From the NCBI RefSeq assembly GCF_036971445.1, contig NC_091476.1, forward strand, positions 155,992,001-156,056,000: a stretch of DNA of 64,000 nucleotides, in the 5' to 3' direction. Position 1 is the first letter of the stretch. Every line of letters starts with the position of its first letter. The notes under the pieces are model-generated. The model made no database searches. It was not told the DNA's origin and was given only the letters and a program-made list of their open reading frames with translations. The stretch comes from Narcine bancroftii (taxonomy: Eukaryota). A program made the translations under genes and the position numbers. Below are positions 52,401 to 58,400 of the stretch, in pieces.

Positions 52401-55400
52401 AAAAATTAAAGTGGGGCCTAGGGCAAAAAAGGCTAAGAACCATTGCTTTAAGCCCAAGATCAGAACGTTTTGGCATAGCTCCTGCTCTCCAAATCAACCA
52501 CTTTCGAGGCTAACTTGAAGTTGCTGGCAGACAATGCATTGAGTTTCTAGTTTACCAAACTAACCTCGGCAGTTTCCAAATAATCCTCAATTGCTGAAAT
52601 TGAATGTAGGACTTTTTCAAGCTTAGAATCATCTCTCATTGACTATTTCACTGCTGTAGTTATTTCTTGTGTTATCTCCCGTGCTTGCTATTTCAACATG
52701 TTTGAAATGAAGTCTGCAGGCAGAGGTGCTATCTCTTTACCATTTTTAGCAACTTTAGCTCCTCTGGTTGTCATCATTTTTAAAAGCAATGATGTTAAAT
52801 ATTGAAGGGACCAAGTTTAAGCCACTTTGAGAAATGTTTAAAATTGATCAGATCACCTAACACTGCCTCCTACACCATGCAGTTGCCAGTCTGGAAGATC
52901 ATCATTTTCAATTCCAAATCGAGCACCTTCTTCGGCTTCTTGCCAGATCTGTCAACGGGGATGGGATTTTTCTCTTGCTCACAATCTTTTTGGCGATCTT
53001 ACCGAATGACAACTGAGACAGTCACTATCGTACGTACGCAGCTGTTATTTTTTTTTTTTGGTCGAATGTACCAAGTCGGGGAGAGGCTCTATTTTGACAA
53101 GTCAAGTGGTCTGTCCATGTTACAATTAAGAAACATGGATTGGACTTTATTGCTCACCATAATTATCAGTTTTTGTCTAAACAAAAATTCAGTTTCTGCT
53201 TCAGATATTCGTATGCTTTCAAGAATAAGAGTTGTTGGGAATCAAGAATGGGATTCATTGAATTCTCATGGCAGTAAACAAGCCTATCCTTTCTGCTTAC
53301 CAGATCTGCACTAGCTTTGTCAAGCAATTCTGTACAGTAAAAAAGATAAAATACTGTTTTATCTTATTTTGTCGTGTGTTAATAGTCTGCCATTTGATTA
53401 TGTAGACACTACCAATTTTCAAAAGTGAACTACAGTATCAACCAGTCGTTAATAATCCTGGAAACTCAAAGTCAGATCTATGTAACTTCTCTGTTGCACA
53501 CATTGTGAACAACATTTACTTTTTTTTGTCCCTTAAACAGTGAGTTTGTTGATATTGTCCACATTTACTACGAAGGACAGTCTTCCATTCACTATTGAAA
53601 TACTATAATATCTGCATACCAGTAAGATGCTTTGAATGTGTTTACGGGGCAGGATCATTCCATCAAGAGAAAGGAGTTTGTTGTGGAGGGAGCAGAACAG
53701 AATTTTATTAAGGAGTCTGACCAGTTTCTATTTTAAGAAAGACCCTGCAACTGTAGTTTTGGTTGGAAAACTATTGAGATGCTCTTCCTTTTGTAGCTGA
53801 ACGTGCTTTGGATACCATGAACTTTGATGTTATCAAGGGGAGACCAATTCGCATCATGTGGTCACAGCGTGATCCATCATTGAGAAAATCAGGAGTTGGC
53901 AATGTATTCATCAAAAACCTGGACAAATCCATTGACAACAAGGCTCTATATGACACCTTCTCTGCATTTGGAAACATCTTGTCTTGTAAGGTGAGTCTGC
54001 AAGAATGGCAGAGTAAAATCTAATCTTGAATTTTGCTGTTCTATCCATTCCTGATGCAATACCCTTGTTGGTTTCCATGTTTTGGAGATGAGTCACATTG
54101 TTAAAAAAGTGACAGGAGTCTCAGAGAGTTTTACCCTAGAAACACCAAGACACTGTATTGTAGTACTTGCTAAATGAACAGTAATACCAAAACATCAGGT
54201 CAAAGAATTATCAATTATTTATGTAGCCAGTTTTTGTGGAACAGTTAGCAGTTCTTAAATAAAAATTGCCAAAAGAAGTAACTAAAGAATCATGAAGTTT
54301 CAAACTTTTTTTTTAACCAAATTGTACCATTCCTCCATTAACTTCATCAGAATCTGTCATGTTTATGAAAGGAGATATACGTTTTTGAAGACTGAAGCAA
54401 GTAATTGTACACATGGAATTTTTTTCTTCAGATTGTGAATTGTTTCATAAAATAATCAATTTTTGTGATTTGACATTAAATACCCACTCTTTAATTTTGA
54501 ATTTCACTTGATTAATGTCTTTGGTTAACACTCTCCTTTTGCCTCTTTGCTCACTAAAGTTTTGTTTGAATTACAATTCTTTCTTTTTTCAGTCTTTTTA
54601 TTAATCATAGGTAAACAATACACGAGGAGAATAAAAGTAAAGGTATAAAGGTTCCATTATTGTCACGTATTGCTACATTTAGAATGTAACATGAAATTCT
54701 TTAACTTTGTCCACCATAAGGAAGACAGAGTTCCAATTTGTCCAGTGCCCCTCACAGCGAGTAACTGGTTTACAAGACCAGTGCTCTAACCACTGAGCTA
54801 TTGGGGCTTTTTATTATGTAAGAGTATATAATCAAGAAGGAAAAAAAATCACTATGACATCATATGATATAACATACTGCATTACACCACAATTAACAAA
54901 TATGTTCTCATCTCCTCAAAATGGAACCCCATCTAATCTAAGGAAAAAAAAATGGCCACTCTATCTGGTAATTACAATTCTTACATGTGCTTCAGTCATC
55001 CTTGGTATTTGTTTTTTTATTAGACTTATTCATGGAATTGTCAAATTTGCAATCGGAGCATACTACAAGGTATCCTGCCTCAGTGTTGTGTGTATAGTAC
55101 CAGTTACTGGAGGCAAAGTCAAGCATTTAGGCCTTTGTCAGTATTTTAACGCTTTTCCAATTGGCCTTTGTTTTTATAGACATACCCACAGTAGAACCAT
55201 TTAATTCTCATCGAAACCACATGAAAATATACCGGTATTGCAAATTCAGACTGCCCAGAAACATTGATGTTGTGTCTTTTAAGGTGGTATGTGATGAAAA
55301 TGGCTCCAAAGGATATGCTTTTGTTCACTTTGAAACTCAGGATGCTGCAGATAGAGCAATTGAGAAAATGAATGGCATGCTACTAAATGATCGGAAAGTG

Positions 55401-58400
55401 TGAGTATTCAAAATTTGAACATGTTTAAATCAGGTTTTAAACTTTTTACACATTGATATTTTGCACAAAGAAATTAAATAATGTTTTTGTTTCCAAAATT
55501 GGAAATTAATTGATCCATTTTGTATTTTAACATGTTAAAGGCAAAGGATTAATTATTGTCATGCAATACAGGTGCTTAATCTTTTATCTGAAATCCTTGG
55601 GACCAGACCAGACTTTGCGGATTTTGGAATTTTTCAGATAATAGAATAACATTAAAACGATGATTCTTTTAAGTAATTGCTGGGGGAGGTGGTAAATTAA
55701 GTGAGATAAAGATAGACAACTCTTGCCTCGCTCGCCCGCCTGAGTTGTGCTGCCCTGCTCGCCCACCCCACTCTCTCCCTGCCTGAGCCACTCCCTTGTC
55801 AAATACCCTTTCAGTGGGGTTGTTGAAATTCTGCTGGAGGACAATCCCAGTATCTTTAAGTAAAACTTCGAACTTAAACTGTCTCAAACTAAGTTAAGCA
55901 CCTGAAAATATACTGTACATGTAGTAAAAAAAAATGTTCGGTTTTCAGTTTTCGGAATTTTTGATAGAAAGATAAGCACCTGTACTACATTTAGAATGTA
56001 ACCTACATGAAATTCTTTTAATTTTTGTCTACCATAAGGCAGACATAGAGTCATCACTTTGTCCAGCGCCCCTCACAGAAACCCTTAACACCCGGTCTCC
56101 CCTCCAAGTACCGACCAGTCCTGAGCCTGCTTAGCTTCTGAGATCAGACAATCTTGGGTGAATTCAGGCTTTTAGGTGCTGTTAAATTTGGGTAATTTGA
56201 TGTTTTTGGTTGCCATTTTCTTCCATTCCCTACATTTTTATTTTTTAATTTCACTTTTCCTTTGCTTTATTTGAGTTAAAAATACCTTAATATACTCTCC
56301 TTTTGCTTGGTGCATTGTGGATCTATTGCCTTATTTTTGCCATTCAAGGCATAAAATTAGAAGTTAGTGTTTTTTGACCTTGTAGGTTGGAATGCCACTT
56401 TTGACGCTTTGGCTCTCAATCCTCCAGTGCATAAACAAGATTTCTGGTCCCTGTCTGGGCATTCTCCAAAAAGGTGGCATTAGCATTGGCATCTTCGGTT
56501 TCCGATAAACTCCTCCCCGAGACTCCCTCAGTCACCTTTCCTCCAGCTCCCCACCCCTTCCTTTCCATTCACAGAGCTCTTTCATCTTTGTTTTTTTTCT
56601 CCTACCCTCCTTCCTATATCCACCTATGACATCTTACCTGTTAGCCTCTCCTTGCCCTTTCTTCTCGCCTCTCCTCTCACTACCTTTTTATTTCGGCACC
56701 TGCCTATTTTTGCTTTGGCCCCAAACTATGGTTACTTTTTACTTCCTATAGATGCTGCATGACCTGCTGTGTTTCTCCAGCACTTTTGTGTATTGCACTA
56801 CAATCACATTACAGACGCAAGTATTGAAATTTTACTGAAGTACATGCTTCTTTCAAAGTAATCTCATCAAGATAGATCTAATTAAGTCCAGGGTTGCTGC
56901 ATCTACCTATATGAATGTATGGTTTTGGATGAAGTTCTGCCTTGTGATAAAATTTAGAATGTTTTATTTTAGGTAAGAGAGGTAAGATTCATTAACAGAA
57001 TTGGGGTAGCATGAGATGTGATTCTTTTGTCTGGGATTTAGCGATTCTTATGTTAAATTGTTTCAAGATAAAGTGGGCTAATGAAGTATAACAACAGGTG
57101 AAATCTCTTACCTAGAAATATTCAGCCCCATGGTATATTACTGTTCTTATTTAATACTAGCTGTTCTTATTTAATACTGCTTCATGATACCCGAAGAATA
57201 AAGAAAAGTCAATTTCAGGTTGAGCATCATAATTTTAACCAAAAAAAATGATTTAACCTTGCACAATCAGCTTACCTTTTGGACCATAAATATCAATAAT
57301 AACTGCATGTGATGCACTCGTCCAATCAAATATGCTGGGAAGCCTGAACACTTTACTTTTGAGGTAGGAATTCTTGTTTTGCCCACATCTCCAAATAATT
57401 AGTTTAATAAGGCCACTGAGTATGTGCAATCCATTGATAGTTTTAAACTAAACCTGCTGCTCTAAGGCACCAACAGGAAGCAACCGACAGTATGTGCCGA
57501 TTTTGTTCCTCTATTGAAAAATTTTTTTTCGCTGTTATGTTTCATATTGAGCATCTATTACTAAGTTCATAGATTACATAAAGGATGGAGAAATATTACA
57601 TTATAGTCGAGAAAGAACAAGAGGCATTTACTGAGAGGTTAAGATGAGACCTAACCCATAAAATGTTGTAAACTAGATCCTACAGAGTTAAATATTACAG
57701 TTATTTTCAAGGAAAAAAAAATTACTGATTTTCAGTGGATCATTGAACTTGGTAATTTTTGAACTATTACTAATGCTCAACTTTAATTTAGATTTGTTGG
57801 TCGTTTTAAGTCTCGTAAAGAAAGAGAGGCTGAACTTGGGGCAAAGGCAAAAGAATTTACCAATGTTTACATAAAGAACTTTGGAGATGATATGGATGAT
57901 GAACGACTCAAAGAAATGTTTGATAAATTTGGTGAGTGGAATTTGTTGCAAATGTGGCTTGGGTAGGTTTTTTTGTCCCATAGGAAGGATACTATCACAT
58001 TCAACAATGTGGGTATTGTTTCCTTGTTTCCTTTACATTTAAAAACTTTAATATCGTGCTTGAGCATTCTTACGTGCTAATTTTATTTAATTTAAATTTT
58101 TAGAATAATGAAATTGTACAACTCAGGATCAGGCCCTTTAGACCACTATGTCCATGCTGTCTTTTTTGTCTATCTACCAATATCCCATTTGCCTGCATTA
58201 GGTTCCTATCCTTCTGTGCCTTGTCTATTCAATTACCTGTCTAAATGCAGTGATTGTATCTGATCCCATCACCTCCTCTGGCAGCAACATCCAGTTATCA
58301 GCCACTTCCTGTGGTTAAAAAAAATTCCCCACAATTCTCCTTTAAAACTCTTCCTCTCTACTGAAACCTGTTCTTCAATGTGTTCTTGCTTTTGATAGAA

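Follow-up and report, generated by a model that had tools for sequence, protein, structure and literature searches.

A probable pair of sister SINE classes, with 5S rRNA and tRNA-Thr heads on one short body, in introns of a cartilaginous-fish PABPC4-clade gene

Short interspersed elements (SINEs) are defined in SINEBase as interspersed, non-tandem repeats of less than 1 kb that are present in at least 100 copies (PMC3531059). Exchange of modules between SINE families, taken as known in the original prediction made for this DNA, is indeed documented, and pairs with tRNA and 5S heads on one body have already been published (PMC5786205). In the coelacanth, CoeSINE4 (tRNA, 201 nt) and CoeSINE5 (5S, 225 nt) sit on one RTE-derived body, and in Helicoverpa armigera HaSE1 (tRNA) and HaSE3 (5S) have a common 3' part behind either head, so the head-swap design itself is already known (PMC5786205). 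Here, a 64-kb stretch of DNA (contig NC_091476.1; the window) is described in which two minus-strand repeat copies, one with a tRNA-Thr head (copy 1) and the other with a 5S rRNA head (copy 2), lie on either side of exon 3 of a PABPC4-clade gene. They probably represent a real and uncatalogued pair of sister SINE classes that carry 5S and tRNA-Thr heads on one body.

As with CoeSINE4/5, a tRNA-headed and a 5S-headed form share one short body, and the sizes estimated here are about 200 and 225-230 nt. The coelacanth bodies, however, combine the 5' and 3' untranslated regions of RTE in the available description, whereas the tail here is of ACCTTT type and Rex1-like. Identity with CoeSINE4/5 was considered and rejected, given that no likeness to the printed bodies was seen by eye and none of six motifs occurred in the PMC5786205 supplement. 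HaSE1 and HaSE3 differ in being insect elements with an RTE partner and a longer body, and HaSE1 has a central domain that, as described, is without counterpart in HaSE3 (PMC5786205). Both promoter types are likewise combined with one long interspersed element (LINE) partner or body superfamily in the springhare Ped-1 (5S) and Ped-2 (tRNA), and in the DeuSINEs, where AmnSINE1, SINE3 and OS-SINE1 have 5S heads and LmeSINE1 and SacSINE1 have tRNA heads, but the partners of all of these are BovB, CR1/L2 or RSg-1 (PMC3747384). DeuSINEs are also longer and have a central domain, with SacSINE1 copies reaching 463 bp (PMC5499810). The body and tail of the present family come to only about 120 nt, to be set against the conserved central domain of at least 60 nt in CORE-, V-, Deu- and MetaSINEs, and the part-tRNA segment that separates 5S from body in the AmnSINE1-type composite head is missing here. 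The copies comprise the following parts, listed with the exon between them, the possible target-site duplication (TSD) and a miniature inverted-repeat transposable element (MITE):

54633..54757, minus strand: copy 1 from the start of the shared body to the end of the tail, roughly 125 nt, closed by degenerate repeats of ACCTTT type (BLASTN; the family's tail, in contig loose ends at 55983, reads identically)
54755..54808, minus strand: tRNA-Thr(UGU)-derived head of copy 1, with acceptor 5' strand, D-arm (A box), anticodon arm and a T-stem remnant of about 10 nt (Rfam, 35.4 bits; by-eye comparison with the tRNA 3'-half loose ends)
55284..55399, plus strand: exon 3 of the host PABPC4-clade gene, for context only
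55533..55539, minus strand: possible TSD of copy 2, 3' copy, 7 nt, weak (partner 56180-56186)
55537..55568, minus strand: rest of the copy 2 tail behind the MITE, with a TGACAATAA motif and CCTTT repeats (sequence reading)
55569..55982, no strand assigned: 414-bp non-coding DNA transposon (MITE) in the tail of copy 2 (inverted ends, TA on both sides, empty site)
55983..56078, minus strand: copy 2 body, shared with copy 1, and the beginning of its tail; a hairpin lies near 56022-56046 (BLASTN, folding)
56079..56177, minus strand: 5S rRNA-derived head of copy 2 (Rfam, 21.2 bits; depth edge at 56174-56186; loose ends at 56083-56095 and 56152-56154)
56180..56186, minus strand: weak TSD candidate on the 5' side of copy 2, 7 nt long and separated from the head by about 3 nt (partner 55533-55539)

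The bodies of the two copies (54757-54673 and 56078-55985) are 81.9% identical over 94 columns (E 5e-19), which confirms the earlier claim that the two minus-strand elements share a body; the BLASTN check proposed with that claim, made within the 64-kb window, returned the second copy and no third. The position around PABPC4 exon 3 was also described correctly, as the copies lie antisense in the two adjoining introns, 2 and 3. Their flanks are unlike, marking them as separate loci, and they are short (<1 kb), interspersed and non-tandem: copy 1 measures about 175 nt, and copy 2, once the MITE is subtracted, about 230 nt. A body plus tail of about 125 nt had been proposed for both; it is unbroken in the tRNA-headed copy, but in the 5S-headed copy the 414-bp element splits the tail. 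One segment of the body, 56015-56080, folds at -19.3 kcal/mol (z -3.7, with none of 200 shuffles as good), while the other folds examined, i.e. the whole bodies (z -1.9 and -1.6) and the tail (z -1.1), were unremarkable.

Members of the family beyond the window were sought in contigs of four of 13 sequencing runs, aligned to the region of the 5S-headed copy (55940-56300) at 80% likeness. Runs X1 and X5 come from organism A, the source of the window, X7 from organism B and X8 from organism C; it may be that the assembly was built from the X1 sample, and the identification of X5 as RNA is a guess only. Loose ends of the matching contigs were available as 24 of 618 rows, six per run, with some records left out. 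The reference being the 5S-headed copy, the tRNA class is known here from its 3' half at the junction only.

The 5S reading of the copy 2 head had been made from likeness alone, as a near full-length 5S-like sequence at 56079-56185. The Rfam match to RF00001 (56070-56186, minus strand, with model positions 1-120 aligned) is weak by itself, at 21.2 bits against a gathering threshold of 38 (E 0.37), but the 5S identity is upheld by the loose ends of the family's contigs. In these, a complete 5S 3' end is joined to the body in 98 and 103 contigs of X1, 29 of X7 and 14 of X8 (4 of the 24 listed rows), and four single contigs span both the body and the 5S head. The head of copy 2 is less complete than first described, since it starts near 56177 and, compared with other copies, is short of about 13 nt at the 3' end of the 5S sequence. 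Its internal control region is retained, and the joining of such a head to a non-5S body places the class among SINE3 (5S-derived) elements. At the other end, the 5' end of the 5S head is identical in X1, X7 and X5 (rows 56152-56154) and the letters beyond it differ from run to run, while at the 3' end the 5S sequence abuts the body (rows 56083-56095) with no partial tRNA between them. In X7 (organism B) the summed depth over the 5S head (56096-56147) was 0.6-1.4 million, greater than the 0.1-0.7 million over the body, an excess that may come from 5S genes of organism B or from further repeats derived from 5S.

For the copy 1 head there is an RF00005 match at 54746-54807 (minus strand) of 35.4 bits against a gathering threshold of 29; ARAGORN calls no gene. 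The original prediction took it for the 5' half of tRNA-Thr(UGU); the tRNA identity stands, but the head is likely to be a whole one with two internal deletions of about 14 nt each, as judged from the roughly 10 nt behind the anticodon arm, which match the 3' strand of the T-stem in other copies. The B box and the 3' acceptor strand are likely to have been deleted in copy 1. In the contigs, a tRNA 3' half is joined at 56081 in 43 contigs of X7 (organism B) and 21 of X5 (organism A), these being 2 of the 24 listed rows; it consists of a T-stem hairpin with a 7-nt loop and the acceptor strand, followed by CA, then TTT, then the body. Its first 26 letters are identical in X7 and X5, and by eye its acceptor strand can pair with six of seven positions of the 5' strand of the copy 1 head. 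The A box region is seen in copy 1 and the T-arm, with T at position 58, in other copies, as pieces and not as one whole head. Recurrence of the tRNA-headed form is therefore seen in two organisms, and the tRNA sequence there extends to its 3' end; both heads are joined to the body through TTT. Neither head is a singleton, because both occur in many contigs at one common junction, which supports the proposal of one body with two promoter modules.

Matching contigs numbered 6861 of 17.7 million records in X1, 5225 of 50.5 million in X7 (55% of the run), 490 of 8.5 million in X8 and 813 of 3.3 million in X5, where contigs are not equivalent to loci nor summed depth to copy number. Summed depth in X1 was 30,000-226,000 over most of the element compared with 9-23 in the flank, i.e. 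10^3-10^4 times the flank as an order of magnitude rather than a count. The 5S-headed copy therefore belongs to a high-copy repeat in three organisms, and the abundance of the family as a whole and of the 5S class is that of a SINE by the SINEBase definition. For the tRNA-headed class alone, the 43 and 21 contigs at one place in the listed rows of X7 and X5 are to be set against the at least 100 copies of that definition, and the 5S class looks the larger of the two here. Site 56040, a possible marker of head class, carries the letter of the tRNA-headed copy in a share of the depth that is 16% in X1, 20% in X7, 24% in X8 and 53% in X5; site 56052 was dropped as a marker since the alignment is gapped there. 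Retroposed type 1 (5S) promoters have been suggested to work poorly (PMC8010984). The two classes, which would have body, tail and partner in common, offer a test of that suggestion through their relative numbers and ages in different species. Pattern scans for further copies gave no matches in viral contigs (two scans) or in genome contigs, a single pattern match in metagenome contigs (L001) did not continue into the body and was taken as chance, and the other Rfam matches (Plastid-clpP, sn2429 and TCL6_1) were also chance.

A simple-repeat tail of ACCTTT type, as found in SINEs, closes the element in the window and in 328, 93, 41 and 69 contigs. The window also holds LINE relics whose homologues carry RVT_1 and DUF1891, a combination that is presumed here to denote Rex1-type LINEs:

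13875-15300, 5126-5900, 6824-7350, 29165-29500, 33150-33300 and 37680-38290, minus strand: RVT_1+DUF1891 (Rex1-type) LINE relics
27120-28000, plus strand: RVT_1+DUF1891 (Rex1-type) LINE relic

A Pfam scan of eight LINE or transposon open stretches gave one weak match, below the cut-off, and the LINE type is taken from the homologues. The Rex1-type relics in the window have at least two tail types, and four LINE relics with a kept 3' end close on GACAATAAA and a microsatellite. An 8-9-nt motif of these LINE ends also stands directly before the terminal repeats of the SINE (4 of 4 Rex1-type LINE ends compared). In an end-anchored test of common words, p was 0.008-0.04 per end and about 0.03 overall, and 3.7% of random 40-mers matched at least one LINE end as well as the SINE tail did. 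The SINE classes are likely to be mobilised by a Rex1-type LINE, the likeness of their tail to these LINE ends being confined to this one motif. Higher depth over the tail side (55992-56017) was not used as a sign of a shared LINE, the listed loose ends there being SINE body.

Two head classes, a common junction, high abundance, a repeat-ended tail and a later MITE insertion are observed directly. The explanation considered probable is that the two copies are decayed members of a repeat with a body of about 120 nt and either a 5S or a tRNA head at one junction, that is, of sister SINE families which arose through one head replacement and whose copying was likely the work of a Rex1-type LINE enzyme. 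The two copies in the window appear to be inactive by now, because copy 1 is without a B box and copy 2 has a MITE in its tail. There is a slight lean towards the 5S head having come first and the tRNA head later, since TTT, the natural 3' end of 5S, persists behind the 3' end of the tRNA. RNA polymerase III (Pol III) would start at the internal promoter of the head, type 1 in the 5S class and type 2 in the tRNA class, and would read through the junction, where three Ts are presumably too few for a stop. The LINE reverse transcriptase would then bind the SINE tail and insert the cDNA by target-primed insertion, and the second family could have arisen, before it spread, when the template was switched or RNAs were ligated once at the border of head and body. 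Both routes have been proposed for module exchange among SINEs and for RNA-LINE chimeras (PMC5499810, PMC4824008, PMC13174262).

Several points weigh against this explanation. The counts rest on contigs and summed depth, and site 56040 is only a candidate class marker. Among the six rows listed for each, there is no tRNA row for X1, the best of the DNA runs, or for X8. The two tRNA rows agree at no more than 0.61-0.62, which makes the class a plurality of those loose ends, and their consensus carries a T at position 58 in the T-loop, where it would make for a weaker B box. No TSD of at least 6 nt was found for copy 1, and the TSD candidate of copy 2 is weak. With regard to the LINE partner, the end-anchored test was picked after the motif had been seen and the LINE ends are mutually related, while local alignment of the tail with four motif-bearing sites, of which the one at 3349 is only a possible LINE end, was not significant (p 0.07-0.65 under two scorings). 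The search for a LINE sharing the 3' tail, as proposed at the outset, yielded the 8-9-nt motif in common with Rex1-type ends but no LINE with the full SINE tail, so the link to the LINE is one short motif.

Among the alternatives, it is unlikely that only the 5S form propagates itself and that the tRNA-headed copies are repeated dead-end chimeras, produced like U6-L1 when the LINE enzyme jumps onto mature tRNA-Thr. This reading is kept alive because T58 should weaken the B box; mature tRNA carries m1A58 and ends in CCA, and a copy of such a molecule would fit both that T and the CA that follows the discriminator base. Chimeras of tRNA and of 5S with L1 do exist (PMC13174262), and other junction points may exist beyond the 24 of 618 listed rows. 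The junction and the 26 letters are nevertheless identical in two organisms (X5 and X7), the body of copy 1 is full-length, and the human tRNA/L1 chimeras are rare, at 21 loci, and mostly half-length and antisense in the accessible account (PMC13174262), whereas the head here is in sense orientation and reaches its 3' end. For the 5S class, recurrent template switching at a fixed junction, one of the three origins first offered, is likewise unlikely. A doubtful extension of the same observations is that a Rex1-derived body captures whole Pol III RNAs end to end, with the tRNA head copied from mature, modified tRNA-Thr (T58 and the remnant of CCA). If true, this would be a vertebrate SINE system on Rex1 whose type 1 and type 2 promoters are rivals for a single body and a single enzyme across species, and whose sequence still shows how the heads were captured. 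It is improbable that the body goes back to an older non-autonomous element without a head, derived from the start and end of a Rex1 LINE, to which 5S and tRNA-Thr were added separately at the 5' end, neither SINE being the source of the other. Separate capture accounts for the identical junction without a swap, and bipartite LINE bodies underlie CoeSINE4/5 (PMC5786205). However, no LINE 5' end like the body was found within the window, where the Rex1-type relics are fragments, no headless class is among the 24 listed rows, and the bipartite derivatives on record in the accessible text are confined to RTE, Ingi, Vingi and R2 (PMC5786205).

Derivation of both forms by deletion from a composite SINE with tandem 5S and tRNA heads, as in some DeuSINEs, was another of the origins suggested at first. 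Composites of 5S plus partial tRNA have been published (PMC4824008, PMC4494074), and internal deletions are present in both window heads, but in the contigs each head is complete to the junction, the 5S and the tRNA 3' ends each running directly into the body with no tRNA remnant between 5S and body. In addition, the consensus upstream of the 5S head differs from run to run and no 5S-like stretch was found upstream of the tRNA head of copy 1, and the composite ancestor is considered very improbable. Although the head of copy 1 is broken and without a clear TSD, as would be expected had a 5'-truncated SINE come by chance to lie next to a tRNA pseudogene, the recurrence of a tRNA 3' half at this junction, in 43 contigs from one organism and 21 from another, makes that scarcely credible, and the tRNA-headed form is neither the singleton nor the chance neighbour that it might have been.

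Sister SINE families related by one head replacement would add an abundant, likely uncatalogued pair to cartilaginous-fish genomes, for which the accessible lists hold only tRNA-headed SINEs (PMC3747384, PMC5499810). The family shares its type of host with HE1 (V-SINE), SacSINE1 (Deu) and SINE2-1_CM/SINE2B-1_CM (CORE), but these, compared by description only, have tRNA heads and L2/CR1-type partners, and none is given as 5S-headed (PMC5499810, PMC3747384). A Rex1 partner, likely for the present family, is recorded for SINE2-5_NV of the sea anemone (partner Rex1-24_NV), the sole Rex1-partnered SINE in the accessible table of PMC3747384, which, again by description only, differs in having a tRNA head alone and a cnidarian host; if true, such a partner would be a first for a 5S SINE of vertebrates within the set of known pairs compared. 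The hagfish elements SINE1-1_EBu and SINE2-1_EBu are alike in that a new small-RNA head was placed on the 3' part of an older SINE, with both active together, and differ in that 7SL and tRNA heads are involved and the partner is RTE (PMC7245038). None of six body motifs was found in two of three MetaSINE supplements (PMC4824008) or in both hagfish supplements (PMC7245038), by a weak, exact-word test. The suggestion of an undescribed family holds in so far as no description was found in the open papers searched; Repbase, Dfam, SINEBase and some supplements lay outside the comparison and may hold one.

The MITE is a later DNA-transposon insertion into the tail of copy 2. Its termini are inverted-identical at 9 of 9 bases, with arms of 34 nt at 76%, TA is duplicated on either side (55567-55568 and 55983-55984), and in the same 328, 93, 41 and 69 contigs the site is empty, 55983 leading straight into the tail and its ACCTTT-type repeats. 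From the TA rule it is presumably of Tc1/mariner type, with CAGGTGCTT termini, and the terminal motif occurs once more in its interior, near 55896-55913; the ends seem to us to resemble those of Tigger/MER46-type elements. No second copy was found within the window.

Of 120 proteins listed, 3 match exon 1 of the host gene at 100% identity; each of these is a shark PABPC4 or PABPC4-like protein, and they group with coelacanth and amniote PABPC4 with support of 100/100 in a tree. The PABPC4 label, read from protein likeness, is sound at clade level, and the host is a cartilaginous fish, as predicted, because of the shark protein identity and the 100/100 grouping. There was no sign of the repeats affecting PABPC4 exon 3 or the gene. 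Directly upstream of the PABPC4-clade gene (31217 onward, plus strand) lie PDIA6-like exons with thioredoxin motifs and a KDEL-type end (about 5040-24400, plus strand). PDIA6 is assumed not to neighbour PABPC4 in mammals, and given that assumption cartilaginous fish may have retained this gene as an ohnologue in its own right.

Other repeats in the window include its youngest pair, 22176-22780 and 40502-41126, which are 91%-identical copies of a 625-nt LINE 3' part on opposite strands and are taken to encode an RTE-like protein. The 3' part of an L1/Tx1-like LINE, with long open stretches and a weak zf-RVT match, lies at 50711-51838 (minus strand) and interrupts transposase pieces at 49813-52280 (plus strand), presumably hAT/Charlie-like. 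An open stretch at 62840-63535 (plus strand) resembles a retrotransposon protease-RT (reverse transcriptase) region, presumably of a Gypsy-type element with long terminal repeats, and decayed retroelement frames at 2357-3346 (minus strand) are assumed to be Penelope/GIY-YIG-like; neither has a Pfam match. A further decayed tRNA-derived SINE of another kind, which we take to be HE1/V-SINE-like, lies at 58900-59080 on the minus strand (the interval being listed as plus).

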